From a virus (taxonomy: Duplodnaviria > Heunggongvirae > Uroviricota > Caudoviricetes), in the IMG/VR virus record IMGVR_UViG_2541047735_000003, positions 1 to 40,965 of that record: DNA of 40,965 bases. One strand, written 5' to 3'. Of the stretch, positions 22,436-39,828 are shown piece by piece. Made by a program: the position numbers and the translations under genes. Numbering within the stretch: position 1 is the first letter of the stretch; each line of letters starts with the position of its first letter. Under the pieces are notes generated by a model. It did not search any database and was not told where the DNA came from. It saw only the letters and a list, made by a program, of their open reading frames with translations.

Positions 22436-22980
22436 TGTGCGATCCGGTTATTGCTGGTGGCGCAATGCTCGCCATGAGTGGCATTCAGGCATACACCCAG
22501 TACCAACAGGGAAAGTATGCCTCGAAGGTTGCAGAAGCGAACGCAGATATAGCCACTGCTCAGGCAAATGATGCAATAAACAGAGGTAACGCTGAAGCTG
22601 AGCAACGGCGCAGAGAGACCCGACAGCGGCTTGGTACACAGGCGGCGACAATGGGGGCGACCGGCGCCGATTTATCTACCGGTAACGCGCTGGATATATT
22701 TGGCGACACTGCCCAGTTTGGCACTCTTGATTCGCTGACGACGGTGAATAACGCGCAACGCGAGGCTTACGGTTATCAGGTTCAGGCTGCCAACTATAAA
22801 GCAGAAGCCAGTTCAGCCCGTAAACAGGGGAATGTGGGAGCAGCAACAACATTGCTCACTGCGCCTCTGAAGGCATACGGTGCGTACCAGATGTTTGGTG
22901 GGACGTGGAGTCCGTTTACTCAAAGCACTCCTGCGCCAATCGGGGCAGCAGCAGGAACCAGATTACCCGGAGGATTATAA
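22435..22980 (+). CDS. Internal virion protein candidate
   Basis: 181-aa Ala/Gly/Gln-rich protein preceding the large ejection proteins. Confidence 0.4.
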   Translation: MCDPVIAGGAMLAMSGIQAYTQYQQGKYASKVAEANADIATAQANDAINRGNAEAEQRRRETRQRLGTQAATMGATGADLSTGNALDIFGDTAQFGTLDSLTTVNNAQREAYGYQVQAANYKAEASSARKQGNVGAATTLLTAPLKAYGAYQMFGGTWSPFTQSTPAPIGAAAGTRLPGGL

Positions 22981-25601
22981 TGCCAGTCGTACCAACAGTA
23001 TCCGGACGTCAGGTTGAGAGTCGTGGAGTTCAGTCAGCAGGCTTGCAGACGTTTTCTCAGCCAGGTATTGGTGATGCTTTTGTTCGGGCAGGGACAGAGG
23101 CAATTGATGTTTTGGGGCAGGCAAAACAGCGTGCCAATATCGCTCTGGCTCAGGAGGCATCTCTTAACCTCAGTCAGATAAGCAGCGATCTGCTGAATAA
23201 TCCTGAAACAGGTTTGCTTAACCTGAAAGGGAAAAATGCTATTGGAAAAGGTCAGGAGTATACGCAGCAGTTTGATGCTCAGATCGAACAACTGGCTATG
23301 TCGCTGCCGGATGAACAGGCTCGTAATGCTTTCATGCAGCAGGCACAGCAGCAGCGCATTCAGTTCACTACGCAGGCCGGGAGGTACGAAATAGGACAGG
23401 TTCGCCAGTATGAGGCGGATATGCAGGATGCGACACTAAAAAACCTATCGATGCAGTTCCGTAACCCGACAATGGCAAACCAGGCAGGATTGAAGGCATA
23501 TCATAGCATCATCGCTTACGGCGAAGCCCACGGCCAGAGTCAGGAAGAGATCGAACAGAACTGGGTTTCGTGGCGCGAGAATGCCGCGAACGGTGCGGCG
23601 GAGGCGTGGTATGTGCCGATGTATCAACAGATGATGGGTCCGAACGGCAAGATTGAGGTAACCGATACACCGAGTGAGGCGCAGTTATTCTCTGCAATAA
23701 TCTGGCAGGAGAGTGGCGGAAATCAGTACGGAAAGGACGGAACACCTCTGGTGTCGCCAAAAGGCGCTGTTGGCGTAGCGCAGGTGACGGAAGATACTGG
23801 CCCCGAAGCTGCCCGCCTTGCTGGCGTGTCGTGGGACCGAGATAAATGGTTGAATGACCCGCGCTATAATGCCCGCTTGGGGCAAGCTTATTTCGGCGCG
23901 CAGATGAAGAAATACGACAATAACCCGGTTCTGGCAGTAGCTGCCTATAACGCTGGCCCAGGAAAGGTTGACGGCTGGATTAAACAGATTGGCGATCCGC
24001 GCACAGGCGAAGTCAGTGACGCCCAGTTTGCCGCAGCTATCCCATACGACGAGACGCGCAATTATGTGGCAAAAGTAACTGGCAGTGCTGGAGCTATTCC
24101 TGGATCTGCGACGATGGAAAACCTCATCGCACAGCCATTCTGGAACGCCATGAGTCCGGACAAAAAGTCGCAGATGATGAGCAAGGTTGCTGGCATGTAC
24201 GACATGCAGGCTTCAGCCGGTCGCGTTGCGCTACAGAGTCGAATGCAGGATGACCTATCCAAAATTGAGGCCGGTAAGCAGGTGACGCCTATTTCAGCGC
24301 ACGAATGGGCCGCCGTTATGCCGCTTCAGGCAGCGCCTGCCGAGCGCCTGCAGATGGAAAAAACCTTCCAGCAATACCAGCAGGCAATGACGCTACAACC
24401 TGTTTATCAGACCATTATGCAGGGCAACGTCCAGCAGGGTACCGCCGCCGTGCAGGCAATGGCACCGCAGGAAAACGACCCTGACTTTAAATACAAAGCA
24501 GAGCTTTATGCATCGGCAAAGGTCAAGCTTGGGCAGGTACTGAAGGCGCGGGAAGCGGATCCGGGGGCATGGCTGCAACAAAACTCTCCGGTTGTGCAAG
24601 CTGCATTCCAGCAGTACCTCAATGACCCTTCATCTGGTGAATACCTGGTTTCCCGCATACAGTCTGAAAAAGACCGCCTGGGGATAATGAGCAAAAAAGT
24701 TTTACCGGAGTCCATGGTCAACGACGTACTGCAGCGTATTGACAACACGCAGGAATCTAGCGTAAAGGCCATTCAGTCGGTGGCGCAGTCGTTCGGCAAA
24801 TACTCGGATCAGGTGATGCAGCAGGTTCAGAAGAACGCTTATCCTGCGTTGCAGGTTGTCATGGCTACCGAGAACCCGCGCGCGGCAAATGCGCTCTGGC
24901 AAAACCGTAGCGTTAAAACTGCTGACTTACGCGGCAGTCTTGAGAAAACCGACGCGGATAGCGCCGACTCGTCATGGAATGACCAATCGAAAGATTTTGC
25001 AGGCACGATGGTTGTTCAGCCTGGTGGCACTGCCGTGTGGAATAACTTCAACGAGCAGGGAAAACGACTTACTTACATCAACATGCAGCGCGGAATGTCG
25101 GCGTCTGATGCAGCAAAACAGGCGTATCAGGACATCCTCGGCGAGCAGTACCAGACCAATGGCACTTGGCGGCTACCTAAGCGTGCAGGGATAGATATTC
25201 GTGACGTTAACGATGGTGCCAATGCGTATCTGAAAAACCTGTCAGCAGATCAGATTATGCCGCTTATTGGTGACCCAAGGCTACCTGATGAGGTTAACCG
25301 TGAGCAGAGTATCTCCCGCATTCGTGATAATGCGCAGTGGGTTACCAACAGCGACGAAACAGGACTTACCCTGATGCTCAACGGGCTGATCGTCAACGGT
25401 GCCGATGGCAACCCGATTACGGTGACGTTCAACGATCTGGCGAAACTGGGAACAACCAACCGATCAGTATGGAACCGCATTACCAAGTTCATTGATACTC
25501 CGGTGAAATATACTCCCGGACAGTCTAAGGAATACAGCGCAGAAAGTCAGCGCGACAACCTGATTAACATTTTCCAGAACGGCCAGCAATCAGGACGATA
25601 A
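22980..25601 (+). CDS. Internal virion / ejection protein with lytic transglycosylase domain
   Basis: Start ATG 22980 (MPVVPTV); contains WQESGGNQYG...GAVGVAQVTEDTG...AAYNAGPGKV, matching SLT-family lytic transglycosylase motifs. Confidence 0.75.
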   Translation: MPVVPTVSGRQVESRGVQSAGLQTFSQPGIGDAFVRAGTEAIDVLGQAKQRANIALAQEASLNLSQISSDLLNNPETGLLNLKGKNAIGKGQEYTQQFDAQIEQLAMSLPDEQARNAFMQQAQQQRIQFTTQAGRYEIGQVRQYEADMQDATLKNLSMQFRNPTMANQAGLKAYHSIIAYGEAHGQSQEEIEQNWVSWRENAANGAAEAWYVPMYQQMMGPNGKIEVTDTPSEAQLFSAIIWQESGGNQYGKDGTPLVSPKGAVGVAQVTEDTGPEAARLAGVSWDRDKWLNDPRYNARLGQAYFGAQMKKYDNNPVLAVAAYNAGPGKVDGWIKQIGDPRTGEVSDAQFAAAIPYDETRNYVAKVTGSAGAIPGSATMENLIAQPFWNAMSPDKKSQMMSKVAGMYDMQASAGRVALQSRMQDDLSKIEAGKQVTPISAHEWAAVMPLQAAPAERLQMEKTFQQYQQAMTLQPVYQTIMQGNVQQGTAAVQAMAPQENDPDFKYKAELYASAKVKLGQVLKAREADPGAWLQQNSPVVQAAFQQYLNDPSSGEYLVSRIQSEKDRLGIMSKKVLPESMVNDVLQRIDNTQESSVKAIQSVAQSFGKYSDQVMQQVQKNAYPALQVVMATENPRAANALWQNRSVKTADLRGSLEKTDADSADSSWNDQSKDFAGTMVVQPGGTAVWNNFNEQGKRLTYINMQRGMSASDAAKQAYQDILGEQYQTNGTWRLPKRAGIDIRDVNDGANAYLKNLSADQIMPLIGDPRLPDEVNREQSISRIRDNAQWVTNSDETGLTLMLNGLIVNGADGNPITVTFNDLAKLGTTNRSVWNRITKFIDTPVKYTPGQSKEYSAESQRDNLINIFQNGQQSGR

Positions 25602-25602: not shown

Positions 25603-27300
25603 ATGCCAATTTACACAGATGATCCGGGACAGGGCATTAACCAGCCAATTGGCAACGCGCCAGCAGGGCTTGGCGAATCGCTGCTTTCTTCCCTTAAGCA
25701 GGGATTTGAAGAGGGGCCGGTCATGTCCGGCTACCGCTTTGCGCAGGTCGACTCGCTGGCGAATGACCCAAACTCTACAGTTATCAGTAAGCAGGACGCA
25801 GATGAGCTCCTGAAGCAGTACGGCGTAAAGAGCATAAACGTGCCAGATTCTGGCGTTACGCAGGCTTTTCTCGATCATGTTATTGCCGAACGCAAAGATT
25901 CTCTGGCACGCCAGCAGATTGCGATGTCGGCACCGAGCGGGTGGGTAGCCACGCCGCTTAATTTCGCAGCCAGCCTAGCTGGTTCAATGGCAGATCCTGG
26001 TAACGTGGCGCTGGCGCTGGTTCCGTTCGCTGGAGAAGCAAAGGCAGCTTCTGTGCTTGGCCGATTTGGCGAGCGATTTGTTGCGGGTGCACGCATGGGG
26101 GCAGCGCAGGCGGTGGTGACCGTGCCGCTTACCGGGCTGGCAGCGGCGGCGGAAGGTGACGACTTCACCTATAGCAACGCGTTGGAAAGTACTTTCTTTA
26201 ACACGATGGCTGGCGGTCTAATGCATGCCGGCGGCGGCCTTATCGCCGATATCGTGCGACCGCGTCGCGTTCCCGATGCTGCAACGGGAGAGTCCCCGGC
26301 GTTTTCTGGCGATGCGCAGCCAACCCCGGTGATAACGCCTGACAACATTCCGGCGGGCGTGAATATCCCTGAGGTTGGCGCTAACGCAGATCTGGCGGCG
26401 GCCATTTCCAATGAAGCGGAGAGCTACGCATACAGCCGGGCTTATGACGACGTGATTCCTGACTATATGGCGCGCCAGCAGGAGTTACAGAGCGGACAGA
26501 TCGGTAACGTTGCCGACCTGCGTGCCGAGCTTGCGGCTAATCAACGTCATGCTGACTCGCTTGATGCGACGCTGCAGCAGCGCACCAAAAAGTATCAGGG
26601 GCAGCGGATGAAGTTTAAGGATGCGCGCTCTAGGGCACTGAAAGAGATTCAGGCCGAGAAAGACGCCATCGCTGCACGCAATCAGGAGATCAACACATCG
26701 CTGGAGCAGAACGCGACAGCAGAGCAGGCGCGCTGGCGCCAGTCTCAGATTTCCCGCGGCGAGATCCCCGACGACCTGAAAGTCACCATTTCCGAGCGTG
26801 CGCAGCAGATCCTGGACGGCATGCAGATGTCGCCGGTCGCTGGCGCAGTTCGCACTGCCGCAAGCGCCATCAGGGATGCTGACTGGAGCGTGAACCAGCA
26901 GGCGTATCGCGCTGCGCTGGCACACATGATGGAAGGACGTAGCCCAGATGTTGAGCCCTTCTATGAACTGCACAAATCGGCACTGCGTGAACGCGCCATC
27001 CATCGCATACAGAACCCGGCACGGCAGGTTGATGAAACGGCTCGCCCAGCAAGCGAAACAGCCGATCGGGTTTATCAAGAAACGCAAAAGGCAGATCATG
27101 AAATTACCGCTGCCGCTGCAGACCTTGATAACGAGCTCAACCTGAGTAACGCCCTGCTTGACGATATCGCTGTCGATAACCCTGATCTTGCGACCACGTT
27201 GCGCCAGAAACTCAATGATATTCGTGCCGACGCCAGCGACAATAGCATGAGCAACGCTTTCCGGGCATTTGCCGCCTGTATGATTAACCGGGGGATGTGA
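25603..27300 (+). CDS. Internal virion / ejection protein
   Basis: 565-aa protein in tandem with the other large ejection proteins. Confidence 0.5.
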   Translation: MPIYTDDPGQGINQPIGNAPAGLGESLLSSLKQGFEEGPVMSGYRFAQVDSLANDPNSTVISKQDADELLKQYGVKSINVPDSGVTQAFLDHVIAERKDSLARQQIAMSAPSGWVATPLNFAASLAGSMADPGNVALALVPFAGEAKAASVLGRFGERFVAGARMGAAQAVVTVPLTGLAAAAEGDDFTYSNALESTFFNTMAGGLMHAGGGLIADIVRPRRVPDAATGESPAFSGDAQPTPVITPDNIPAGVNIPEVGANADLAAAISNEAESYAYSRAYDDVIPDYMARQQELQSGQIGNVADLRAELAANQRHADSLDATLQQRTKKYQGQRMKFKDARSRALKEIQAEKDAIAARNQEINTSLEQNATAEQARWRQSQISRGEIPDDLKVTISERAQQILDGMQMSPVAGAVRTAASAIRDADWSVNQQAYRAALAHMMEGRSPDVEPFYELHKSALRERAIHRIQNPARQVDETARPASETADRVYQETQKADHEITAAAADLDNELNLSNALLDDIAVDNPDLATTLRQKLNDIRADASDNSMSNAFRAFAACMINRGM

Positions 27301-29849
27301 TGGCAGCAAACGAATTTTTGACGCAGTGCGAGCGCAGTGTAAATGCTGCCGCTGGTCGCGAGCTTTCTTCCGATGAGATGGAGTCGCTGGTGCGTGACAT
27401 GAACGACACCACTAGGCGAATTCTGGCGACCAATGAGGCGCTGTCTCTGGAAGAGGCCGCGATGCGCGCAGCGGAAGAACTGAGCAATGCCGATATGCTG
27501 GCAAAACAGATTGAGTCTCGCAATAAGGCAATCAACACCCGTATTGCCGCACAACGACTTAGAGAGCTTCGTACTATCTGGAAAGACCGCCCGGATATCG
27601 GGCTTGAAGCAATGCTGGTTGGCCGTAACGATGCGCGTACCGGCGCCCGCCGGTCGGTATCTTCGGAGGTGGCGCAACTGCGCGGCAAGTATCATTCCGG
27701 TATCAACTACGATTTTGACCGTGCCGGGCTGGTGCAATTCATCGCCAGCGGCAGCAATGACAGGGAAATTGCCGATGCAATGTGGCGCATAGGGCGCGGG
27801 CAGTCAACTGACGGTATGACAAAGCAATCCGTAAGCGCTGCACAAATCATCATGAAATGGCAGGAAACTGCGCGCATTGATGAGAACCGCGCCGGGGCAT
27901 GGATACGCAAAGAGCCGGGCTATATAGTGCGCCAGTCACACGACATCATGAAGATCCGCGCCGCAGGTTATGAAGCATGGCGAAATGCTATTCTCCCGCG
28001 CCTTGATGAGCGCACTTTTGACGGCGTGGCTGACCGCGAGCAGTTCATGCGTAACATTTATAACGGGCTGGCTTCCGGCGTGCATCTTACATCTGAAAAG
28101 CCCGATTGGATGAATGGCTTTAAGGGATCGGCGAACGCAGCTAAACGCGCCAGCCAAGAGCGAATTTTGCACTTCAAAGATGGTATCTCGTGGCACGAGT
28201 ACAACCAGCAATTCGGCACCGGCAGCCTGCGAGAGGCGCTGTTTGGTGGCTTAAACAGCGCTGCCCGCACAACGGGCATGATGCGCGTACTGGGCACTAA
28301 CCCACAGAACATGTTTAAGTACCTGACGGACACCATTGCTGAAGATATCAGCAAATCCGGAAGACCGGCAGCGTTGGCTGACTACATGACGAAGGTGCGT
28401 CGCATTAACCGTACCGTAATGCCGCAGGTTGACGGCTCGCTAAATATTCCTGGCAGCGTAGGCTGGGCCAATGCGTCGGCGGCTGTACGCGGCTGGTTGC
28501 GTATGAGCCAGCTTGGTGGCGCGGTAATCTCATCGTTTAACGACGTGCCTATCGCCGCTACCGAGATGCGCTACCAAGGGCAGAATTTTATGCAGGCGTT
28601 GCTTGGTGCTATGAGAGGCCGCTTCACGCGTTACAACAGCGCGGAGCAGAAAGAGATCCTTTCCTCTATCGGAGTTTATTCCGACTCCATGACGCAGGAA
28701 ATCATCCGGCGCATATCTGGTGATGACACGCTGAATGGAAAACTTGGTCGCGCGCAGCAGCTTTTCTTTAAGTACAACCTCATGAACTTCTGGACCGAGA
28801 GCGGTCGCAACAGTAACGCCATGATGATAACCAACTGGCTTGCAAAGAATGCTGACCAGCCTCATGCGCGGCTACCGGAAGACCTGCGACGCGTGCTGGA
28901 TCTGCACGGTATTGGCGAACGTGAGTGGGAAATTTTTCGCAACATGGACATGGCCGATAGCGAAGGTCGTAAGTTCATGACGACCAGCGGCATCCGCGGC
29001 GTGCCTGACGAAGTGATTGCCGGTTATGTAGAGAGTAAGGGGATCAAGCCAACGCAGCGCGCTATCGCTGACGCACGCGATCAATTGGAAGGGCAGTTGC
29101 GCGGCTACATCCTTGACCGCCTGAATATCGCCATGTCAGAGCCTGGCGATCGCACGCAGGCGTTTATGAAGATGGGCACGGTGCCAGGAACGGTGGCTGG
29201 GGAAGCAATACGATTCGCTGGTCAGTACAAATCGTTCACTGCAAGCTTCATGCAGAACGTACTAGGACGCGAAGTATTCGGGCGTGGTTATATTCCTGCT
29301 GGGCTTGGTGAGTCGAAAACCGGATCGCTGACGAATGCGCTGCTGCGTAACGGGAAGGGGGCTTTCCTTGGTGCTGCAAACCTCTTTGTCTGGGCGACTA
29401 TGTTTGGTTATATCTCCATGCAGTCAAAACTCATGCTGAAAGGGCAAACACCGCGCCCGGCAGATGCCAAGACGTTTCTCGCAGCCGCATCTCAGGGGGG
29501 CGGTCTTGGCATCTTGGGTGACTTCATGTTTGGCGAGGTCAACCGCATGGGGGCCGGGCCGGTTACGTCGCTAATGGGGCCGGCAGCATCGAACGCTGAC
29601 AGCATTATCACGCTGCTCCAGCAGACCACGAGAGGGGATGCAGATTTGGGTGACTGGTATCGCACGGCACTTGACAATACGCCATTCCTCAACGTGTTCT
29701 GGCTTCGTACGGCGATGAATGGTTTAATATTGAACCGGATACAAGATGCCCTTGACCCTGGCTCTCTTGAGCGTTATCAGCGCCGTGTTGAGCGTGAGCA
29801 GGGTAACGAATTTCTGATTCCACCATCGCAGTTCATGCTAGGGAAGTAA
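27297..29849 (+). CDS. Internal virion / ejection protein (large)
   Basis: 850-aa protein, last of three large tandem proteins typical of podovirus ejectosomes. Confidence 0.5.
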   Translation: MMAANEFLTQCERSVNAAAGRELSSDEMESLVRDMNDTTRRILATNEALSLEEAAMRAAEELSNADMLAKQIESRNKAINTRIAAQRLRELRTIWKDRPDIGLEAMLVGRNDARTGARRSVSSEVAQLRGKYHSGINYDFDRAGLVQFIASGSNDREIADAMWRIGRGQSTDGMTKQSVSAAQIIMKWQETARIDENRAGAWIRKEPGYIVRQSHDIMKIRAAGYEAWRNAILPRLDERTFDGVADREQFMRNIYNGLASGVHLTSEKPDWMNGFKGSANAAKRASQERILHFKDGISWHEYNQQFGTGSLREALFGGLNSAARTTGMMRVLGTNPQNMFKYLTDTIAEDISKSGRPAALADYMTKVRRINRTVMPQVDGSLNIPGSVGWANASAAVRGWLRMSQLGGAVISSFNDVPIAATEMRYQGQNFMQALLGAMRGRFTRYNSAEQKEILSSIGVYSDSMTQEIIRRISGDDTLNGKLGRAQQLFFKYNLMNFWTESGRNSNAMMITNWLAKNADQPHARLPEDLRRVLDLHGIGEREWEIFRNMDMADSEGRKFMTTSGIRGVPDEVIAGYVESKGIKPTQRAIADARDQLEGQLRGYILDRLNIAMSEPGDRTQAFMKMGTVPGTVAGEAIRFAGQYKSFTASFMQNVLGREVFGRGYIPAGLGESKTGSLTNALLRNGKGAFLGAANLFVWATMFGYISMQSKLMLKGQTPRPADAKTFLAAASQGGGLGILGDFMFGEVNRMGAGPVTSLMGPAASNADSIITLLQQTTRGDADLGDWYRTALDNTPFLNVFWLRTAMNGLILNRIQDALDPGSLERYQRRVEREQGNEFLIPPSQFMLGK

Positions 29850-30726: not shown

Positions 30727-30741
30727 TTACCTTTTCGGTAA
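30727..30741. promoter_or_regulatory. Operator palindrome TTACCTTTTCGGTAA at head of antirepressor leader 1
   Basis: Perfect site followed by TTTACA, a hairpin and an intrinsic terminator. Confidence 0.55.
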
Positions 30742-30831
30742 ATTTACATCGCGCTCATCTTGTGCCATAGTAATCGGGCACTGGCAAAATCCAGTGCCGG
30801 GATTGGCGTCCCGGGTTACTAAGTGGCGCAT

Positions 30832-30854
30832 ACCACGCCAGACGTGGTTTTTTT
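30832..30854 (+). terminator. Intrinsic terminator inside antirepressor leader 1
   Basis: ACCACG-CCAGA-CGTGGT followed by seven T; about 155 bp upstream of the antirepressor start codon. Confidence 0.6.
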
Positions 30855-31010
30855 ATGCGTTAAGCACAGCTATATCCGAATTATGGTGGGCTGGGCAGGG
30901 GTCCGAAAGGACGCCGGTACCACTTAGGCCGGTACGCCAACCTTGTCCAGTTCACCACCAGTAATTGGCGTTGCGGTGGTGATTAAAATCACTAAGTGGA
31001 GATAACCACC

Positions 31011-31721
31011 ATGGCTAATGCTCAAACTGCCATCTTCAAATTTGAATCTGTTAACCCTATCCGTTCCATCATTATCGATGGCCAACCATGGTTTGTAGCC
31101 CAAGACGTTTGTAGTGCGCTGCGTATCCAAAACGTCACCCAAGCACTTGAAAAACTGGATGATGATGAAAGGTCTATGTTCAACATAGGGCATGAACATC
31201 GTGCAATTTTTGACAGCCGAGTAAAAGAGATCAACATCATCTCCGAGTCAGGCCTCTACACACTGATCCTCCGCTGCCGCGACGCAGTGACACCAGGCAC
31301 TATCCCCTACCGCTTTCGTAAATGGGTTACAGGTGAGGTTCTTCCTCAGATCCGCCGCACCGGAAGTTACATTAAAAACTCGCTCCCGCAGGAAGAACGC
31401 ATAAAGATAGTTGCCGACCAGGTAGCCAACGCCACAGCATCAGCAGTGATGCAGGCAATGAAGATAGAGAACAAAACCTACAGTGCCCCGCTGAAGCCCG
31501 GCTACCGCAGCCTGATTCATTCTCCGTCTGGTGTTCTCGGCCTGACGGAGAACTCACTGCTGATGAATCTGCTGAACCAGTTACAGGACGACGGGCACGA
31601 CGTATCGGGCGCGGCGGCGGAGCTGACCACCATGTTCTGCTACATCGTCGGTGTGAGTAAATGCCTGCGTGATATCCAGACCCACGCGGAATACATCAAC
31701 GACAAGGCAGGGTTCTTCTGA
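31011..31721 (+). CDS. Bro-N domain antirepressor-like protein (copy 1)
   Basis: N-terminal Bro-N-like motif (DGQPWFVAQDVCSALRI); C-terminal about 135 aa nearly identical to the convergent paralog 32993..33730; ATG 31011 (ORF-track frame starts 30996). Confidence 0.65.
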   Translation: MANAQTAIFKFESVNPIRSIIIDGQPWFVAQDVCSALRIQNVTQALEKLDDDERSMFNIGHEHRAIFDSRVKEINIISESGLYTLILRCRDAVTPGTIPYRFRKWVTGEVLPQIRRTGSYIKNSLPQEERIKIVADQVANATASAVMQAMKIENKTYSAPLKPGYRSLIHSPSGVLGLTENSLLMNLLNQLQDDGHDVSGAAAELTTMFCYIVGVSKCLRDIQTHAEYINDKAGFF

Positions 31722-31752
31722 CGGGCGGTGGCACAGGGATGTGCCTTTAAAT
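31308..31752 (+). repeat. Inverted repeat: 3' half of antirepressor copy 1
   Basis: About 445 bp nearly identical in inverse orientation to 32962..33406, extending about 30 bp past the stop codon. Confidence 0.65.
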
Positions 31753-31793
31753 AATTCTGTACAGATTGCAGACCGGGGGTGAATAGCGTACTA

Positions 31794-31808
31794 TTACCTT
31801 AAAGGTAA
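31794..31808. promoter_or_regulatory. Operator palindrome TTACCTTAAAGGTAA upstream of cargo operon
   Basis: Perfect site 43 bp upstream of ATG 31851. Confidence 0.55.
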
Positions 31809-31850
31809 ACCTGTTTTTATTTTATACCTGTAACTTACCGGAGATTAAAG

Positions 31851-32177
31851 ATGACAAAACTTGGATTCGTGATGAGAGGTCCGGTAAGAAGCGGAACTCA
31901 TGCAAAGCGTAGCAAGAGTCGTATTTTTACTGGTAAGGTTGTAGCACGTAAATCAGCTATTGGCTCGTTCAATAGTGAAAATGCGGCATTGCGCCATATT
32001 TTTATCAGCACAAAGCCAAGAGCATCCGCTGATGTGCATACAATGTCTATTCCTATCACAAAGAATATAAAGCGGATAAAAAAGCTCTCATCTGCAGAAT
32101 CAAAAGAGATATCTTTCCGCCAGCTTAACTCATTAGAAACGCATATGAAGGAAGAGGAATTCGATGTTTTTGAGTGA
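31851..32177 (+). CDS. Hypothetical basic protein, first gene of AT-rich cargo operon
   Basis: 108 aa, Lys/Arg-rich; GGAG upstream; overlaps the downstream gene by 14 nt; no recognisable family. Confidence 0.5.
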   Translation: MTKLGFVMRGPVRSGTHAKRSKSRIFTGKVVARKSAIGSFNSENAALRHIFISTKPRASADVHTMSIPITKNIKRIKKLSSAESKEISFRQLNSLETHMKEEEFDVFE

Positions 32178-32676
32178 GTATAGCGGGAAGGTTATACCTA
32201 CTGGTGAGTTTAAAACTGATGACTTTCTGATTTCGCTAAAAGATGCTTTTAAACAACACTGGCGTCATGGTCATCATCCTGATCTGGGAAAAGATACTCT
32301 TTTTGAAAGACCAGAGGAAGTATTAGGCTTCCATCTCAGAAAGGTTCATGTCAATATTGGTGAATATGCATCATATTCATACTCATGTACTGAACAGTGT
32401 TGGGATGAGTGGTCATATGGATTGATTGATGAACAAGGAAATTACAGGCCAAAACCAACCAGTAACGCATATCTCATATATGCAGTCAATGAAATAAGAG
32501 ATGCAGCCTTACTAGCTTATTGGGACCCGCCCGCACACACCAAAGCTAACGCAAAAGTTTGGATGGATTCCGTATTGAATTTCACAAAATTATTTCATGA
32601 ACGAACGAATACAGCTCCACTTAGTAGAAATGTTTATCCGTGGGATTATTCGTACAAATCCAAAAAGCCTGCATAG
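32164..32676 (+). CDS. YafO-like toxin candidate
   Basis: 170 aa; segments FHLRKVHVNIGE and TSNAYLIYAV...AALLAYWDPPAHTKA resemble the YafO pattern as recalled from memory; AT-rich. Confidence 0.4.
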   Translation: MFLSEYSGKVIPTGEFKTDDFLISLKDAFKQHWRHGHHPDLGKDTLFERPEEVLGFHLRKVHVNIGEYASYSYSCTEQCWDEWSYGLIDEQGNYRPKPTSNAYLIYAVNEIRDAALLAYWDPPAHTKANAKVWMDSVLNFTKLFHERTNTAPLSRNVYPWDYSYKSKKPA

Positions 32677-32757
32677 TAGTTTTTTATGGACGAAACAAAA
32701 GTCAGTGCTACACTCATTGACGCCACATTGAGGTGGTTTATAGATGGAAATTTCACA

Positions 32758-32919
32758 ATGAAAAAAGCATTTGCTGCACTGTTCGTTTTGTTGTCTCTGG
32801 TAGCTTCAACTCAGGCCTTTGCCGGTCGTTGTCAGCACGACAGCGACACTGCTGCTGACGGCTCCCGCTGCGGTGGGCGTTCTGCGGATTCCCGCCCGGG
32901 TGGCGGTGGCATTCGTTAA
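32758..32919 (+). CDS. Small secreted peptide
   Basis: Internal ATG of ORF 32686..32919 gives MKKAFAALFVLLSLVASTQAFA signal peptide followed by a short Gly/Arg/Cys-containing mature region. Confidence 0.45.
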   Translation: MKKAFAALFVLLSLVASTQAFAGRCQHDSDTAADGSRCGGRSADSRPGGGGIR

Positions 32920-32924
32920 AAACA

Positions 32925-32942
32925 AGGCCGCGAAAGCGGCCT
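32925..32942. terminator. Stem-loop between cargo operon and antirepressor copy 2
   Basis: AGGCCGC-GAAA-GCGGCCT; T-rich on the minus strand, so it likely terminates antirepressor copy 2. Confidence 0.45.
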
Positions 32943-32955
32943 GTGACATGTCACG
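32942..32955. repeat. 14-bp palindrome TGTGACATGTCACG (copy 3)
   Basis: Identical 14-mer between the cargo operon and the 3' end of antirepressor copy 2, immediately after hairpin 32925-32942. Confidence 0.6.
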
Positions 32956-32961
32956 CTAGTT

Positions 32962-33406
32962 TCGTTTTGCACGTCCCTGTGCCGCCGTTCTGTCAGAAGA
33001 ACCCTGCCTTGTCGTTGATGTATTCCGCGTGGGTCTGGATATCACGCAGGCATTTGCTCACACCGACGATGTAGCAGAACATGGTGGTCAGCTCCGCCGC
33101 CGCGCCCGATACATCGTGCCCGTCTTCCTGTAACTGGTTCAGCAGATTCATCAGCAGTGAGTTCTCCGTCAGGCCGAGAACACCAGACGGAGAATGAATC
33201 AGGCTGCGGTAGCCGGGCTTCAGCGGGGCACTGTAGGTTTTGTTCTCTATCTTCATCGCCTGCATTACTGCTGACGCCGTGGCGTTGGCTACCTGGTCGG
33301 CAACCATCTTTATGCGTTCTTCCTGCGGGAGCGAGTTTTTAATGTAACTTCCGGTGCGGCGGATCTGAGGAAGAACCTCACCTGTAACCCATTCAAGAAA
33401 TCTGAA
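32962..33406 (-). repeat. Inverted repeat: 3' half of antirepressor copy 2
   Basis: Partner of 31308..31752; antisense spurious ORFs 31372..31557 and 33157..33342 are about 90 percent identical, showing the nucleotide identity. Confidence 0.65.
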
Positions 33407-33730
33407 TGCTCTCGTTCCCTCAGTCATTGCCTCTTTGCAACGCAGAATAAGGATGTAGAGACCTGATTCTGAAACGATGGATAGTTCTTGTATTCCACCA
33501 GGGGTCTGTATTGAATACAGCCCCTTTTTGTTCCAGCCTTTTTTATCAAGTTTTCTCGCTTGTGTAACATCAATATTCAAAGCATTGCACACATCTTTGG
33601 TGACAAACCAAGGTTCTCCGTCAATCATGAACATACGGATCTGGCAGGATGACTCAAAGGAAAAGATGGAAGGTTTGGTATTCATGGCGATCACCTTTGT
33701 AGTTAGGTTAATCACCACCGCTGAGACCAA
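32993..33730 (-). CDS. Bro-N domain antirepressor-like protein (copy 2)
   Basis: N-terminal Bro-N-like motif (DGEPWFVTKDVCNALNI) divergent from copy 1; C-terminal half nearly identical to copy 1; true start probably the internal ATG (MNTKPSIF). Confidence 0.65.
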   Translation of the reverse strand: MVSAVVINLTTKVIAMNTKPSIFSFESSCQIRMFMIDGEPWFVTKDVCNALNIDVTQARKLDKKGWNKKGLYSIQTPGGIQELSIVSESGLYILILRCKEAMTEGTRAFRFLEWVTGEVLPQIRRTGSYIKNSLPQEERIKMVADQVANATASAVMQAMKIENKTYSAPLKPGYRSLIHSPSGVLGLTENSLLMNLLNQLQEDGHDVSGAAAELTTMFCYIVGVSKCLRDIQTHAEYINDKAGFF

Positions 33731-33967
33731 TCAGATGGTGGTGAACTGTGCAGAGTTGGTCTTACCGGCTACAAAGGAACCCGGCGCACCTTTCGGTGCC
33801 CCCACACAGCCCACCATAGAATAGGTGCGCTTTACACATAAAAAAACCGCTTATGCGGCATATGTGCCTCTGTAGTAATCCGGGAGACCAATCCCGGCAC
33901 TGGATTTTGCCAGTGCCCGATTACTATGGCACAAGAGGAGTGCGATGTAAATTTACCGAAAAGGTAA
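33731..33967 (-). repeat. Antirepressor leader, inverted-repeat copy A'
   Basis: Reverse complement aligns with 30715..30995, including the operator, the hairpin and a T-run terminator with a shorter CCGC-ATAA-GCGG stem. Confidence 0.6.
33953..33967. promoter_or_regulatory. Operator palindrome TTACCGAAAAGGTAA at head of antirepressor leader 2
   Basis: Perfect site; mirror-image counterpart of the site at 30727. Confidence 0.55.
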
Positions 33968-33998
33968 ATATAAGCACTCCACTTGGTAATTGCAAACC

Positions 33999-34256
33999 TT
34001 ATCTGGTTTGTTTTCGTAATTGTTCGGCACAATAGTCGAGATGTGTTTGCAGATCCTGCATAGACATCTGTGAGCTGGTGACGTAGTTAATCAGTGCAGT
34101 CAGTTCGGCAAGTGGGCCATCGACATTAAATCCATCCTTATCGAGATCCCGGAGTAATTTCATCAAGTGCGATCCCTCCACCAGTGACCTGACGCCTCCC
34201 GGCGTGTGAATCCTTTCGGTAAATCCGTCTTCCAGTGGATAGTGATACTGCTGCAT
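33999..34256 (-). CDS. Small stand-alone antirepressor C-domain homolog, LexA-box associated
   Basis: 85 aa from ATG 34256; IHTPGGVRSLVEGSHLMKLLRDLDKDGFNVDGPLAELT...DLQTH aligns with the C-terminal domain of both Bro-N proteins; a CTGT-N8-ACAG box lies about 22 bp upstream; ORF-track frame extends to 34379. Confidence 0.55.
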   Translation of the reverse strand: MQQYHYPLEDGFTERIHTPGGVRSLVEGSHLMKLLRDLDKDGFNVDGPLAELTALINYVTSSQMSMQDLQTHLDYCAEQLRKQTR

Positions 34257-34277
34257 CTTATCTTCTCCATGCAATAA

Positions 34278-34293
34278 CTGTATATTTATACAG
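34278..34293. promoter_or_regulatory. LexA (SOS) box CTGTATATTTATACAG
   Basis: Matches the CTGT-N8-ACAG consensus with an AT-rich spacer; 22 bp upstream of ATG 34256 on the minus strand. Confidence 0.6.
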
Positions 34294-34332
34294 TAGCAAA
34301 TAATTTGTTTGCTATCCAGCACGTTTTGCAAA

Positions 34333-34347
34333 TTACCTGAAAGGTAA
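34333..34347. promoter_or_regulatory. Operator palindrome TTACCTGAAAGGTAA between small antirepressor gene and tailspike
   Basis: Perfect site in the divergent intergenic region. Confidence 0.55.
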
Positions 34348-34451
34348 TATCTATTCGTATTTACAGTCTTTCTATCCATATGTGGTTTTCCAGGTAATAG
34401 AATAACCAGATATGCGGCGCAACGGGTGCTGCGACTATCTGGAGATTTAAC

Positions 34452-37400
34452 ATGACGGTCTCAACCGAAGTTGACCACAACGAATACACCGGTAACGGCG
34501 TTACGACATCGTTTCCGTATACTTTTCGAATTTTCAGAAAATCAGACCTGGTTGTTCAGGTGTCTGACCTGAACGGGAACGTAACAGAATTGGTTCTGGA
34601 TACCGGTTATACGGTAACTGGGGCGGGCACTTATAGTGGCGGTGCAGTGGTTCTTCCGTCGCCGCTTGCTGCTGGCTGGCGAATCACGATAGAGCGTGTG
34701 CTTGATGTGGTGCAGGAGACAGACCTTCGCAATCAGGGAAAATTTTTCCCCGAAGTGCATGAAGATGCCTTTGACTACCTGACGATGCTGATCCAGCAAT
34801 GTTTTGGGTGGTTCAGACGTGCATTGATGAAACCATCTTTGCTTGCAAAATATTACGATGCAAAGCAAAACAAAATTTCTAACCTTGCAGATCCATCATT
34901 TGAGCAGGACGCTGTAAATAATCGCTCAATGCGTAATTATGTCGATGCTGCAATCGCCGGGGTTGTTGGTGGTTTTGGTTGGTTTATTCAGTATGGTTCT
35001 GGGGCTGTGTACCGAACGTTCCAGGATAAAATGCGTGATGCTATTAGCCCCAAAGATTTTGGAGCTGTTGGTGATGGTATAAATGACGATTCCACTGCAA
35101 TAAGCGCGTGCCTTGAAGCCTCATCTCCAGGTTATAAAATTGACGGATTAGGGCTTACTTTTAAAGTATCAACTCTTCCGGATGTCAGTCGATTTAAAAA
35201 TGCTCGTTTTTTATTTGAGAGAATACCGGGCCAGCCTCTTTTTTATGCTTCTGAAGATTTTATCCAGGGAGAGTTATTTAAAATTACAGATACACCGTGG
35301 TACAACGCCTGGACGCAGGATAAAACGTTTGTATATGACAATGTCATCTATGCGCCTTTTATGGCTGGAGACCGCCATGGTGTAAATAACCTCCATGTTG
35401 CATGGGTTCGCTCAGGAGATGACGGGAAGACCTGGACAACGCCGGAATGGCTTACAGATTTACATGAAAACTATCCCACAGTTAACTATCACTGCATGAG
35501 TATGGGGGTTGTCAGAAATCGCCTTTTTGCTGTAATTGAGACGCGGACCGTGAGCGGAAATAAACTGCAGGTTGCAGAGTTGTGGGATCGCCCAATGAGT
35601 CGCAGCCTTCGCGTTTATGGTGGTATAACGAAAGCAGCAAATCAGCAAGTCGCTTATATTCGCATTACTGATCACGGATTATTTGCTGGTGATTTTGTCA
35701 ACTTCTCAAACTCTGGTGTTACAGGTGTTACCGGGAATATGACGGTGACTACTGTTATTGATAAAAATACTTTTACAGTTACGACGCAAAATACCCAGGA
35801 TGTGGATCAGAATAACGAGGGTAGATACTGGAGTTTTGGTACATCATTTCACTCGTCACCATGGAGAAAAACCAGTCTTGGAACTATTCCTTCTTTTGTT
35901 GACGGAAGCACTCCTGTTACTGAGATTCACAGTTTTGCGACGATTAGCGATAACAGTTTTGCTGTTGGCTACCATAATGGTGATATTGGTCCACGCGAGC
36001 TTGGGATACTCTATTTCTCTGATGCTTTCGGTTCTCCTGGTAGCTTTGTTCGCAGACGCATACCTGCAGAATATGAGGCGAATGCATCTGAGCCATGTGT
36101 AAAATATTATGATGGCATTCTGTATCTGACGACCAGGGGGACATTAAGTACTCAACCCGGTAGTTCATTGCACAGAAGCTCTGATTTAGGTACATCATGG
36201 AATTCTCTTCGCTTCCCAAATAATGTTCATCACTCAAACCTTCCTTTTGCCAAAGTTGGCGATGAGCTGATTATTTTTGGCAGTGAGCGCGCATTTGGTG
36301 AGTGGGAAGGAGGAGAACCTGATAACCGTTATGCAGGAAATTATCCAAGAACATTTATGACCAGAGTTAACGTCAATGAGTGGAGTCTGGATAATGTAGA
36401 GTGGGTTAATGTTACTGATCAGATTTATCAGGGCGGAATAGTTAACTCTGCGGTTGGTGTTGGTTCAGTTTGTATCAAAGACAACTGGCTGTACTACATT
36501 TTCGGTGGGGAAGACTTTCTAAACCCATGGAGCATAGGGGATAACAACAGAAAATATCCTTATTTTCACGATGGTCACCCGGCTGATTTGTATTGTTTCA
36601 GGGTGAAAATTAAACAGGAAGAATTTGTTTCAAGGGATTTTGTCTACGGAGCCACTCCTAACAGAACGCTTCCTACTTTTATGTCGACGTCAGGCGTGAG
36701 GACGGTTCCTGTACCCGTTGATTTCACAGATGATGTTGCCGTCCAGTCACTGACTGTCCATGCAGGTACATCAGGACAAGTTCGCGCGGAAGTCAAACTT
36801 GAGGGTAATTACGCCATTATTGCGAAGAAAGTACCGTCTGATGATGTTACCGCTCAGAGATTAATCGTTAGCGGCGGTGAAACAACGTCTTCAGCAGATG
36901 GTGCAATGATAACGTTGCATGGTTCCGGAAGCAGTACTCCACGTCGCGCGGTATATAACGCACTCGAACATCTTTTTGAGAACGGAGATGTTAAACCTTA
37001 TCTTGATAATGTAAATGCTCTTGGTGGTCCGGGAAACAGGTTCTCGACAGTTTATCTTGGCTCCAATCCTGTGGTTACCAGTGACGGAACATTAAAGACA
37101 GAGCCGGTCTCTCCTGACGAAGCATTGCTGGATGCCTGGGGTGACGTCAGGTATATCGCTTATAAATGGCTGAACGCTGTCGCTATAAAGGGGGAAGAAG
37201 GGGCGAGGATACATCATGGTGTAATCGCGCAGCAACTTCGTGATGTTCTTATTTCTCACGGACTCATGGAAGAAGAAAGCACAACATGCCGCTATGCCTT
37301 TCTTTGCTATGACGATTATCCCGCAGTATATGATGACGTCATTACTGGCCAAAGGGAAATGCCGCTGACTGATAATGACGGGAGCATCATTGTTGATGAG

Positions 37401-37571
37401 GATGATAATCCAGTGATGGTAATAGAAGACATCATTGAGCGCGTTGAAATAACGCCAGCAGGATCTAGATGGGGGGTCAGACCTGATCTCTTATTCTATA
37501 TCGAGGCAGCATGGCAGCGCAGAGAAATGGATAAGATAAAAGAGCGGGTTCAGTCTCTGGAAGAACGTTAA
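34452..37571 (+). CDS. Tailspike / receptor-binding protein with sialidase-like domain and C-terminal chaperone
   Basis: 1039 aa; two Asp-box motifs (SGDDGKTW, SSDLGTSW); C-terminal SDGTLKTEPV...HHGVIAQQLRDVL resembles the autoproteolytic S74 chaperone domain of endosialidase-type tail proteins. Confidence 0.8.
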   Translation: MTVSTEVDHNEYTGNGVTTSFPYTFRIFRKSDLVVQVSDLNGNVTELVLDTGYTVTGAGTYSGGAVVLPSPLAAGWRITIERVLDVVQETDLRNQGKFFPEVHEDAFDYLTMLIQQCFGWFRRALMKPSLLAKYYDAKQNKISNLADPSFEQDAVNNRSMRNYVDAAIAGVVGGFGWFIQYGSGAVYRTFQDKMRDAISPKDFGAVGDGINDDSTAISACLEASSPGYKIDGLGLTFKVSTLPDVSRFKNARFLFERIPGQPLFYASEDFIQGELFKITDTPWYNAWTQDKTFVYDNVIYAPFMAGDRHGVNNLHVAWVRSGDDGKTWTTPEWLTDLHENYPTVNYHCMSMGVVRNRLFAVIETRTVSGNKLQVAELWDRPMSRSLRVYGGITKAANQQVAYIRITDHGLFAGDFVNFSNSGVTGVTGNMTVTTVIDKNTFTVTTQNTQDVDQNNEGRYWSFGTSFHSSPWRKTSLGTIPSFVDGSTPVTEIHSFATISDNSFAVGYHNGDIGPRELGILYFSDAFGSPGSFVRRRIPAEYEANASEPCVKYYDGILYLTTRGTLSTQPGSSLHRSSDLGTSWNSLRFPNNVHHSNLPFAKVGDELIIFGSERAFGEWEGGEPDNRYAGNYPRTFMTRVNVNEWSLDNVEWVNVTDQIYQGGIVNSAVGVGSVCIKDNWLYYIFGGEDFLNPWSIGDNNRKYPYFHDGHPADLYCFRVKIKQEEFVSRDFVYGATPNRTLPTFMSTSGVRTVPVPVDFTDDVAVQSLTVHAGTSGQVRAEVKLEGNYAIIAKKVPSDDVTAQRLIVSGGETTSSADGAMITLHGSGSSTPRRAVYNALEHLFENGDVKPYLDNVNALGGPGNRFSTVYLGSNPVVTSDGTLKTEPVSPDEALLDAWGDVRYIAYKWLNAVAIKGEEGARIHHGVIAQQLRDVLISHGLMEEESTTCRYAFLCYDDYPAVYDDVITGQREMPLTDNDGSIIVDEDDNPVMVIEDIIERVEITPAGSRWGVRPDLLFYIEAAWQRREMDKIKERVQSLEER

Positions 37572-37577
37572 AAAAAA

Positions 37578-37597
37578 GCCCGCAAAATATTGCGGGT
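37578..37597. terminator. Stem-loop after tailspike gene
   Basis: GCCCGCAA-AATA-TTGCGGGT preceded by an A-run; strongest as a minus-strand terminator. Confidence 0.45.
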
Positions 37598-37877
37598 ATC
37601 AAAAACGGAGTTGGTGAAAAGTTATCTTTGAATTCTATCATGAATCAGTACGTATTTTAAATACATGTTCAGGTTTATTACACCATAGCATTATTAAATA
37701 CAAAATTAAGTCTATGGTTCCTGTACAACTGCCCCCACTCTGCTGGCTCGTTCTGTAAAATCATTAGTACTTTTATTGAGATATATGATATGGAACAATA
37801 ATGATTCATATATGGTTTACTATGCGGGTTTAGTCATCAATAATTGACTGGCTTATAGATAGTAAACAGGAGAAAGT

Positions 37878-39676: not shown

Positions 39677-39828
39677 CATGGCATTTTTCATGGTACTGAT
39701 TTCCGGTGACGGTATATAAAACGGTACGGGAAAAATTGAGATTTGGAAAAATGTTATCACTCAATTGGTTATGGTTGTCGTAAATAATTGAGTGGGAATG
39801 ATTTGACCCTGCACTATGAATGAACAAA

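Follow-up and report, generated by a model that had tools for sequence, protein, structure and literature searches.

Endosialidases, which serve as reagents for polysialic acid and are under study as anti-K1 therapeutics, are the textbook example of capsule-specific phage depolymerases. The enzyme of the lytic T7-like phage K1F, endoNF, which carries a T7 gp17-like N terminus, is represented by several structures (PDB 1V0E, 1V0F, 3GVJ-L, and 3JU4; chaperone 3GW6). In the P22-like prophage CUS-3 (Lederbergvirus), SiaK1 (CP000711, ABQ88383.1) has a P22 gp9-like head-binding domain instead, its gene is followed by the phase-variable O-acetyltransferase gene neuO, and a direct assay is cited in its record as evidence that it has endo-alpha-sialidase activity (PMID 16689790). 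A third system is the temperate phage vB_EcoP_ZX5 (Uetakevirus, MW722083), which has the O87:H52:K1 strain YO1 as its host and is spontaneously induced at 10^7 PFU/mL; its ORF7 (QTH80017.1) was described as an N-terminal tail-fibre domain followed by an endosialidase and a chaperone (Li et al. 2022, PMC9782041). Other members of the epsilon15 group, namely, Salmonella phage epsilon15 (gp20), phiV10, phiv142-3, and SPN1S, have a similar N-terminal anchor on a tailspike encoded at the same genome position, but the receptor-binding parts in that group are beta-helix, GH28-like, or SGNH enzymes directed against O antigens, without an endosialidase.

The window analyzed here (the whole stretch of 40,965 nt) contains a tailspike gene (Table 1) whose product is the endosialidase of an epsilon15-like prophage of K1 Escherichia coli, already annotated and published. 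The protein is identical to NCBI entry WP_021525794.1, named endosialidase catalytic beta-propeller domain-containing protein, and its match to PHROG 1171 ("tail spike protein") spans residues 1 to 1039. The full-length gene is present in 72 complete E. coli genomes, and all full-length copies among the matches listed are found in K1-type ExPEC, APEC, and NMEC strains (e.g., IHE3034, APEC O1, and cerebrospinal fluid isolates). ZX5 ORF7 matches the gene in length and, apart from a few single-nucleotide polymorphisms (SNPs), in sequence (99.6% nucleotide identity across the full 3,120 nt), and ZX5 shares the leader and the neighboring genes (a gp19-like gene upstream and holins and endolysin downstream). 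The window and ZX5 are colinear between int and the lysis genes, and the position of the tailspike gene, between the ant/gp19 region and a lysis cassette whose holin and endolysin genes lie directly 3' of it, is syntenic with ZX5, epsilon15, and phiV10. Beyond these genes, attR (ATTGAGTGGGAATGATT) is found at positions 39787 to 39803, followed by host yfgI and yfgH; the prophage occupies the guaA 3' end of a K1-encapsulated E. coli host. Relative to ZX5, the moron region upstream is rearranged in the window prophage, and the injection-protein genes are divergent. Since the identical protein is in RefSeq and a 99.6% identical gene is carried by a characterized phage, this copy adds no new enzyme or mechanism. 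Its value is modest and lies in evolution and regulation, as one catalytic-plus-chaperone cassette is found on two virion anchors within one bacterial lineage.

Table 1. Coordinates of the tailspike gene, its domains, and flanking elements in the window
Feature	Position	Strand	Details
Candidate repressor operator	34333..34347	.	15-bp palindrome TTACCTGAAAGGTAA; TTACC-N5-GGTAA site in divergent control region
Candidate sigma-70 promoter for tailspike-lysis genes (predicted)	34375..34403	+	-35 TCCATA 34375-34380; -10 TAGAAT 34398-34403
Leader hairpin	34406..34442	+	7-bp basal stem, 8-bp upper stem (3 G-U pairs), 5-nt loop, 2-nt bulge
Shine-Dalgarno GGAG	34441..34444	+	7 nt 5' of ATG; invariant in 13 aligned leaders
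Tailspike gene	34452..37571	+	1039 codons plus stop; ATG to TAA
N-terminal virion-anchor module, epsilon15/Uetakevirus type	34452..35063	+	aa 1-204; identity to Uetakevirus tailspike N termini
Endosialidase N-terminal extension	35064..35264	+	aa 205-271; Pfam PF12218 (End_N_terminal), E 5.9e-32, profile 1-67 of 67
Horizontally shared catalytic and chaperone module	35150..37542	+	2393 nt, codons 233-1030; 99.46% identical to siaK1 of P22-like prophage CUS-3
Six-bladed beta-propeller catalytic domain	35265..36614	+	aa 272-721; PF12217 (End_beta_propel), E 3.8e-233, profile 1-367 of 367; carries H309, E547, R562, R613
Asp box 1, SGDDGKTW	35412..35435	+	aa 321-328
Beta-barrel domain inserted in propeller	35598..35846	+	aa 383-465; PF12195 (End_beta_barrel), E 3.2e-46, profile 1-83 of 83
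Asp box 2, SSDLGTSW	36177..36200	+	aa 576-583
Stalk domain	36615..37079	+	aa 722-876; PF12219 (End_tail_spike), E 8.4e-78, full profile length; triple beta-helix in endoNF; ends at predicted mature C terminus T876
C-terminal intramolecular chaperone domain	37080..37568	+	aa 877-1039; Pfam PF13884; predicted cut T876/S877, Ser877/Lys882 dyad
GC-rich hairpin 8 nt past stop codon	37579..37596	-	T8 run on minus strand, A7 run on plus strand

An initial annotation of this DNA had described the 1,039-residue product as a tailspike with sialidase-type features, and the open reading frame on the plus strand as well as the endosialidase and S74 profile matches agreed with that description. The profile searches that it had proposed as a check matched both the sialidase propeller and Peptidase_S74, the latter above its gathering score, and all four endosialidase Pfam domains were matched across their full profile lengths. 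In a PDB sequence search, the K1F endoNF chains 1v0e and 3gvl matched residues 205 to 876 (E = 0), and the phi92 endoN structure matched the tailspike at an E value of 2e-271. The two Asp boxes, expected about 260 residues apart, are both present as strict motifs (S-x-D-x-G-x-[TS]-W) at an actual distance of 255 residues; composition-preserving shuffles of the protein contained on average 0.0015 such motifs. Domain order and both Asp boxes are in common with endoNF, to which the protein is 65% identical over mature residues 246 to 910 and 51% identical over the chaperone. The residues that we take to form the endoNF active site (E581, R596, R647, and H350, in a numbering that agrees with the 1v0e chain) have E547, R562, R613, and H309 as their counterparts, each within an identical local motif. 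Among the stalk residues that presumably bind polysialic acid in endoNF, two have conserved counterparts (R803 and S814), whereas M819 stands where endoNF has Q853. The protein also differs from endoNF by a 7-residue insertion (residues 481 to 487). Both M819 and the insertion are presumably found in the active CUS-3 enzyme as well, because there are no nucleotide differences from siaK1 at those codons.

The likeness of the C-terminal region to the S74 chaperone, also proposed initially, held over the whole tail. Peptidase_S74 (PF13884) matched residues 877 to 937 (E 1.7e-10; 41.4 bits versus a 22-bit cutoff), and residues 857 to 1038 aligned with the crystallized K1F endosialidase chaperone 3gw6 at an E value of 1.6e-59 (2e-93 with the full-length query); the GA-1 neck appendage 3gud matched the tail at 3.8e-10. 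The endoNF dyad S911/K916, which we take to act in cleavage, is conserved as S877/K882 in the context NPVVT/SDGTLK (the slash marks the predicted cut), with the lysine five residues after the serine. S877 aligns with alanine in the 3gw6 chain, which is the S911A mutant of the endoNF chaperone. Crystallized mature endoNF chains stop at the aligned GSNPIVT, so the mature end is predicted at T876, and the cleavage context GSNPxVT/S is common to endoNF and the window protein.

We conclude with high confidence that the product is the tailspike with which a temperate podophage of the epsilon15-like (Uetakevirus) type destroys its receptor, and that in it an endosialidase and a self-cleaving chaperone are joined to a Uetakevirus anchor. 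The N-terminal approximately 200 residues would dock the trimer onto the tail. Residues 205 to 876, an endo-alpha-2,8-sialidase of the GH58/K1F endoNF type with cap, propeller (bearing the two Asp boxes and the barrel), and stalk, would bind and depolymerize the polysialic-acid K1 capsule, allowing the virion to reach the outer membrane. The chaperone (residues 877 to 1039) is predicted to drive trimerization and stalk folding and then to remove itself by Ser877/Lys882-dependent autoproteolysis between T876 and S877. The analysis itself shows the domain architecture, the retained key residues, the near-identity to an assayed enzyme, and the genomic setting, whereas activity, trimerization, and cleavage of this particular protein are predictions. 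Polysialic acid is by far the most likely substrate, as the DNA of the catalytic module is 99.5% identical to that of the assayed siaK1 and the sister phage ZX5 was isolated on a K1 strain; the initial annotation had predicted a polysaccharide depolymerase and named a polysialic-acid-type capsule as a possible target.

Two other readings of the protein were weighed, and both appear very improbable. Its specificity might be for something other than plain alpha-2,8 polysialic acid, such as the alternating alpha-2,8/2,9 polymer of K92, or be confined to O-acetylated or de-O-acetylated forms of K1; the exchange of one presumed polysialic-acid-binding stalk residue (Q853 to M819) and an identity to endoNF of only 65% would fit such a shift. 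However, the cassette differs at just 13 of 2,393 nt from the CUS-3 siaK1 gene, the assayed endosialidase of a K1 strain, ZX5 forms plaques on a K1 strain, and the full-length genomic copies among the matches listed are all in K1-type strains, which makes a deviating specificity hard to credit. We likewise give little credence to the gene being a relic in a defective prophage, with a product that has lost its enzymatic activity or its place in the virion. The injection-protein region does differ from that of ZX5 (positions 23395 to 30719 had no megablast match), and the moron region is rearranged, with an inverted duplication. Against decay, the open reading frame is intact and of the same length as in the viable, spontaneously induced ZX5, all key residues are retained, the shared module is free of differences among the window, IHE3034, and N21, and int, the lysis genes, and attR are all present.

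The gene is a mosaic in which a Uetakevirus anchor is joined to a CUS-3-like cassette within an interval of approximately 100 nt around codons 200 to 233. On the 5' side, positions 34252 to 35047, comprising the leader and the gene's first 596 nt, are 96.7% identical in DNA to phiv142-3, and the anchor is 69 to 75% identical to the N termini of the epsilon15, phiV10, Tyrion, BUCT554, SPN1S, and Klebsiella prophage tailspikes. This anchor, which also matches the first approximately 180 residues of PDB 28lx/8ck1 (the Dpo31/Dpo36 depolymerases; E 2e-32), is common to Uetakevirus tailspikes with other enzyme domains. On the 3' side, the protein is 95% identical to SiaK1 over residues 193 to 1039, from propeller to chaperone, whereas the N-terminal approximately 190 residues are unrelated (P22 gp9-like in CUS-3 and epsilon15 type in the window), and the gene is followed by lysis genes rather than by neuO. 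The 2,393-nt module was identical (no differences) in the window, IHE3034, and N21, and ZX5 differed from it by 4 SNPs. Some strains, IHE3034 among them, harbor CUS-3 alongside this type of prophage, and the two phages lie approximately 170 kb from each other on these K1 chromosomes of the ST95 type. The count of 13 differences from siaK1 was unchanged when the CUS-3 copy coresident in IHE3034 was used. Ongoing gene conversion between the two coresident endosialidase genes was rejected, as the same 13 differences were found with or without a shared genome.

Upstream, the gp19/c4/ant operon runs leftward and the tailspike gene rightward from a divergent control region. TTACC-N5-GGTAA sites are strongly enriched in the window (13 sites, 11 of them perfect, versus 0.69 expected by chance). 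The prophage repressor is encoded on the minus strand at approximately positions 5332 to 5916. The palindrome in this region between the operon and the tailspike gene is conserved in 13 relatives, and the homologous epsilon15 site is annotated as a protein_bind feature, "repressor" (this label and the label "IHF" come from the GenBank record only). The 17-nt spacer of the candidate promoter contains a degenerate second operator half-site. Its TAnAAT hexamer is kept in the 13 aligned leaders with one exception (TAAACT in BUCT554), and only the third position varies otherwise; a consensus promoter scanner made no call at positions 34375 to 34403, where the -35 element matches at 3 of 6 positions. 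The tailspike gene has its own control region, in which a palindrome of the repressor type and a likely promoter are followed by a conserved leader hairpin that adjoins the Shine-Dalgarno (SD) sequence; operator palindrome, TAnAAT, hairpin, and GGAG are kept in epsilon15 and related Uetakevirus phages.

The inverted repeat noticed initially in the 5' untranslated region, with a 3' arm entering GGAG, does form a predicted hairpin (CCAGATA TGCGGCGC AACGG GTGCTGCG AC TATCTGG). It ends on G34441 and G34442, the two bases with which GGAG opens, such that 2 of the 4 SD bases are paired. The 43-nt fold has a free energy of -20.9 kcal/mol compared with -9.35 +/- 2.38 kcal/mol in dinucleotide shuffles (z = -4.85), and 0 of 200 shuffles were as stable. 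Individual folds predicted an equivalent hairpin for 12 of the 13 phage relatives and also for several prophages of enterobacteria. Relatives differ in the register of the basal stem, which reaches over GGA in Salmonella phages and over the whole GGAGAU in a Klebsiella prophage, while the Tyrion stem leaves the SD sequence free. In Proteus prophages, which are more distant, a different hairpin is present, and it too pairs with the SD sequence. Related prophages carry the leader hairpin ahead of tailspikes whose enzyme modules are unrelated, so it is part of the phage backbone and not of the enzyme. RNAalifold applied to a MAFFT alignment of 11 leaders, in which the basal stems were misaligned, returned a 4-bp apical stem only, without compensatory pairs; the apical GCGC...GCGC core is conserved by sequence and not by covariation. 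Six near-identical hairpins of the E. coli type were used to build a covariance model; run with filters off, this narrow model recovered the E. coli group, a prophage of Klebsiella (E 0.01), and one of Pseudescherichia (E 0.03), but not the Salmonella group. An Rfam search of the leader gave nothing credible, the best match being a Tetrahymena snoRNA (E 0.37). The hairpin was rejected as an intrinsic terminator on the plus strand because it lacks a U tract behind it (AGAUUUAAC); on the minus strand (UUAUUCUAUU) the case for a terminator is weak, and no leftward transcript is expected from the tailspike open reading frame. The scanner made no terminator call here.

The most plausible role of the hairpin, proposed with low confidence, would be to tune translation initiation or to stabilize the 5' end of the mRNA. 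That the repeat does not occlude the ribosome-binding site, and is instead a stabilizer at the 5' terminus of an mRNA starting within the hairpin or at its base or a protein-binding palindrome at the DNA level in the divergent control region, is a serious possibility, if one that falls short of probable. The TAnAAT hexamer ends 2 nt before the hairpin, which would place the start at approximately positions 34409 to 34411, inside the 5' arm; if this -10 element is used, the bases that pair with the SD sequence are absent from the mRNA. The preservation of the apical core in sequence instead of by covariation, the pairing of just two SD bases in the window, and the density of operator palindromes in the region also fit a nonoccluding element. 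Against it, the stem covers more of the SD sequence in several relatives (GGA or GGAGAU), and pairing with the SD sequence is seen again in the different hairpin of the distant Proteus prophages, a recurring association that points to the ribosome-binding site.

A further reading, which we put forward only tentatively, concerns history and control: the complete cassette would have been recently transferred between two unrelated temperate podophage lineages, P22-like CUS-3 and epsilon15-like, and a repressor-operator pair together with a genus-wide leader hairpin gating the ribosome-binding site would control the Uetakevirus tailspike-lysis unit. If true, the transfer would provide a dated case from nature in which coresident prophages exchanged a receptor module, and its 5' junction would fall within the conserved cap at the N terminus of the catalytic part. 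Neither the cassette history nor the leader control was found described in the literature searched, which did not extend to the CUS-3 paper of 2006 or to the paper on the epsilon15 genome. Downstream of the gene, the GC-rich hairpin past the stop codon is, by its flanking runs, terminator-like mainly for leftward transcription.

The open reading frame at 34452..37571 (+) runs from ATG through TAA and encodes 1039 amino acids, as the initial annotation had claimed, and the pair of Asp boxes claimed at a spacing of about 260 residues is present as two strict motifs (SGDDGKTW at aa 321 and SSDLGTSW at aa 576) 255 residues apart, against a mean of 0.0015 strict boxes in the shuffled protein. Every Pfam endosialidase domain was matched full length, and the HMM search proposed for a sialidase propeller and Peptidase_S74 returned both (Table), the latter at 41.4 bits against a cut-off of 22 bits; PHROG 1171 (tail spike protein) spans the entire protein. 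Chains of the endosialidase of coliphage K1F, endoNF (1v0e, 3gvl, and others), covered aa 205-876 at an E value of 0, the phi92 endosialidase (4hiz) matched at 2e-271, and the C-terminal region aligned end to end with the crystallised K1F chaperone domain (3gw6; E = 1.6e-59). Identity to endoNF was 65% across the mature part (residues 246-910) and 51% in the chaperone domain. Residues 350, 581, 596, and 647 of endoNF, verified on the 1v0e chain as H, E, R, and R, correspond to H309, E547, R562, and R613 in identical local motifs, the roles of these residues being those given in the endoNF literature. Of the stalk-site residues of endoNF, two are kept as R803 and S814 and one differs (Q853 to M819). 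Mature crystallised endoNF ends in GSNPIVT, and the predicted cleavage site here reads GSNPVVT876/S877DGTLK882, in which both members of the endoNF cleavage dyad S911/K916, a serine and a lysine five residues on, are kept (S877/K882). Judged by these domains, structural matches, and conserved residues, the protein is a textbook endosialidase tailspike with a predicted self-cleaving chaperone, and the earlier reading of a sialidase-type tailspike with an S74-like C terminus was correct.

Features of the tailspike, its leader, and related elements (window nucleotides unless marked otherwise)
Feature	Position	Remark
End_N_terminal	aa 205-271	Pfam E 5.9e-32, full-length
End_beta_propel	aa 272-721	Pfam E 3.8e-233, full-length
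End_beta_barrel	aa 383-465	Pfam E 3.2e-46, full-length
End_tail_spike	aa 722-876	Pfam E 8.4e-78, full-length
Peptidase_S74	aa 877-937	Pfam E 1.7e-10
15-bp palindrome TTACCTGAAAGGTAA	34333-34347	conserved leader element
TAnAAT hexamer	34398-34403	kept in 13 aligned leaders bar one substitution in BUCT554
TTACC-N5-GGTAA 15-bp sites	5198, 5260, 5972, 6020, 8279, 8341, 10524, 10542, 13689, 30727, 31794, 33953, 34333	
isrK / C4 antisense RNA pairs	33734-33821 (-), 33840-33916 (-), 30778-30854 (+), 30879-30962 (+)	Rfam gathering level
IHE3034 endosialidase genes	NC_017628.1 2884245-2887364 and 2715108-2718053	loci L035, L036

This endosialidase tailspike is already known. Its exact sequence is in NCBI (WP_021525794.1 / EQP83927.1, named [quoted passage not shown] and belonging to a 90% cluster of 3581 members), and across its whole length the gene shares 99.6% identity with ORF7, the tailspike gene of the published temperate sister phage vB_EcoP_ZX5 (Uetakevirus). 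The ORF7 product has been described as having a T7-like tail-fibre domain at the N terminus, an endosialidase domain in the centre, and an intramolecular chaperone of endosialidase at the C terminus, and the isolation host of ZX5 was E. coli YO1, serotype O87:H52:K1 (PMC9782041). The full-length gene was found at >=99% identity, with the same RefSeq annotation throughout, in 72 of 5426 complete E. coli genomes, including K1 reference strains IHE3034, APEC O1, and APEC O18 and cerebrospinal fluid isolates. Modest interest remains in a clean cassette exchange between CUS-3 and Uetakevirus types, in lysogens with two endosialidase genes, and in the control region, so far uncharacterised, of the Uetakevirus tailspike-lysis unit.

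The window, a prophage, is colinear with ZX5 from the integrase gene (position 1) through the lysis cassette. A single copy of the published attP core, ATTGAGTGGGAATGATT, is present (39787-39803), and the host genes yfgI and yfgH come after it; the integration site of ZX5 is the 3' end of guaA (PMC9782041). The tailspike gene is followed by two holin-like genes, a GH19 endolysin gene, and a gene for a DUF2514 protein and is preceded, on the opposite strand, by a gp19-like ORF, the sRNA genes isrK and C4, and an anti-repressor gene. A tRNA-Arg gene (anticodon TCT; 13290-13366, minus strand) lies between the terminase and portal genes. Positions 23395-30719 had no megablast-level match to ZX5, the remaining structural region being approximately 98.6% identical; ORFs 22905..25601, 25603..27300, and 27297..29849, for large internal or injection-type virion proteins, likewise had no such match, and this injection-protein block is a second mosaic block of the prophage.

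The tailspike gene is itself mosaic. The leader and codons 1 to ~199 (34252-35047) share 96.7% identity with Uetakevirus phiv142-3, a phage with a tail fibre that differs in its C-terminal part, whereas codons 233-1030 (35150-37542) are 99.46% identical to siaK1, the endosialidase gene of the P22-like prophage CUS-3, the record of which cites direct-assay evidence for endo-alpha-sialidase activity. The ~100 nt between the modules (codons 200-233, at the start of the End_N_terminal cap) retain protein-level homology to both but have diverged, and at the 3' end the junction falls 29 nt short of the stop codon. Identity of the N-terminal anchor to those of epsilon15 (a Salmonella phage of the genus Uetakevirus), phiV10, Tyrion, BUCT554, SPN1S, and a Klebsiella prophage is 69 to 75%, and the enzyme modules joined to this anchor in E. 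coli genomes are of the GH28-like, SGNH, or beta-helix kind. It is common for K1 strains to have two endosialidase tailspike genes; in IHE3034, APEC O18, N21, and EC69 these are ~170 kb apart and belong to a Uetakevirus-type prophage and to the unrelated prophage CUS-3. Across the 2393 nt common to both types, there were no differences among the Uetakevirus-type copies (the window, IHE3034, and N21) or between the CUS-3 copies of RS218 and IHE3034, and the two types always differed at the same 13 positions. Because this difference is fixed and copies are identical within each type, the sequences point to a single, fairly recent cassette transfer between the types; the same fixed differences argue against continuing gene conversion between the two genes.

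The 200 nt preceding the tailspike ATG are conserved genus-wide, independently of tailspike enzyme type (32 phage records), with a 15-bp palindrome, a TAnAAT hexamer, a hairpin, and the Shine-Dalgarno GGAG in that order. The inverted repeat that the initial annotation had placed in the 5' untranslated region, with its 3' arm running into GGAG, was confirmed at 34406-34442 (CCAGATA-TGCGGCGC-AACGG-GTGCTGCG-AC-TATCTGG), its last two bases being the first two of GGAG (34441-34444), which stands 7 nt before the ATG. Its predicted RNA fold (-20.9 kcal/mol) was more stable than those of dinucleotide shuffles (-9.35 +/- 2.38; z = -4.85; none of 200 equally stable). When phage leaders were folded singly, 12 of 13 formed a hairpin with its 3' arm extending into the Shine-Dalgarno sequence, the bases covered being GG (E. 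coli group), GGA (Salmonella group), or the whole GGAGAU (a Klebsiella prophage); in Tyrion, the arm ends just before that sequence. Our best guess is that the hairpin reduces or times the initiation of translation. A close second is a transcription start at ~34409-34411, in which case the bases that pair with the Shine-Dalgarno sequence would be absent from the mRNA and the stem would act as a 5'-terminal stabiliser. In a wider survey of 19 prophage leaders of other genera, a similar hairpin was kept in Citrobacter, Erwinia, Superficieibacter, Pseudescherichia, and Scandinavium, the apical stem alone in Pseudocitrobacter and Kluyvera, and a different but also Shine-Dalgarno-pairing hairpin was found in Proteus, and Pseudomonas relatives have an ordinary upstream terminator; stability z-scores ranged from -4.9 to about +1. 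The hairpin is not specific to the endosialidase. Leader alignment and covariance-model comparison yielded no formal covariation support for it, and an Rfam search of the leader matched no family.

TCCATA stands 17 nt before the hexamer, with a degenerate second half-site inside the spacer. The gp19-like gene (33999-34379, minus strand) has two different annotated starts among relatives, giving 258 nt in ZX5, phiV10, and epsilon15 and 381 to 384 nt in PAS61 and SPN1S; in its long form the gene begins at a conserved CAT (34377-34379) that overlaps the inferred -35 of the tailspike promoter. The palindrome pattern TTACC-N5-GGTAA occurs 13 times in the window (11 perfect) where 0.69 would be expected by chance; all of these sites lie in intergenic control regions, among them both flanks of the repressor gene and the stretch immediately preceding the terminase genes. 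The sites are often paired at a distance of 48 to 62 nt, and three pairs have a common second site, ATGTGGTT...GGTAA(T)A. Since the homologous palindrome in the epsilon15 record is labelled a repressor-binding site (with an adjoining IHF site), the 13 sites probably serve as the set of operators for the prophage repressor.

Upstream of the tailspike, a ~1-kb inverted duplication (arms 30719-31722 and 32992-33975; complementarity of 91% over 504 nt and 93% over 103 nt) carries an anti-repressor (BRO-N) gene in each arm (30996..31721, plus strand; 32993..33730, minus strand), compared with a single ant copy in ZX5. Each ant copy is immediately preceded by an isrK-then-C4 pair, the two pairs being in opposite orientations, so that an arrangement similar to the c4-ant module of P1/P7 immI is present twice. 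The 1269-nt segment between the arms (31723-32991) holds three small ORFs and is inverted relative to ZX5, which could reflect an inversion through recombination of the repeats. Two BRO-N genes are present in strain N21 as well, with different cargo that includes a YafO toxin. Between the tailspike stop codon and the first holin-like gene lies an AT-rich, noncoding gap of 306 nt (37572-37877), which opens with an A7 run and a GC hairpin (37579-37596) that, with a T8 tail on the minus strand, resembles a strong terminator in that direction only; a promoter-like site on the same strand, TTTAAA-18-TAGAAT with TG, is found at 37661-37632. Jointly, these elements could encode an antisense RNA of ~55 nt that abuts the tailspike 3' end, with its terminator run extending to the stop codon; alternatively, they could be what is left of a lost moron. 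In phiv142-3, a 99-aa ORF occupies this position.
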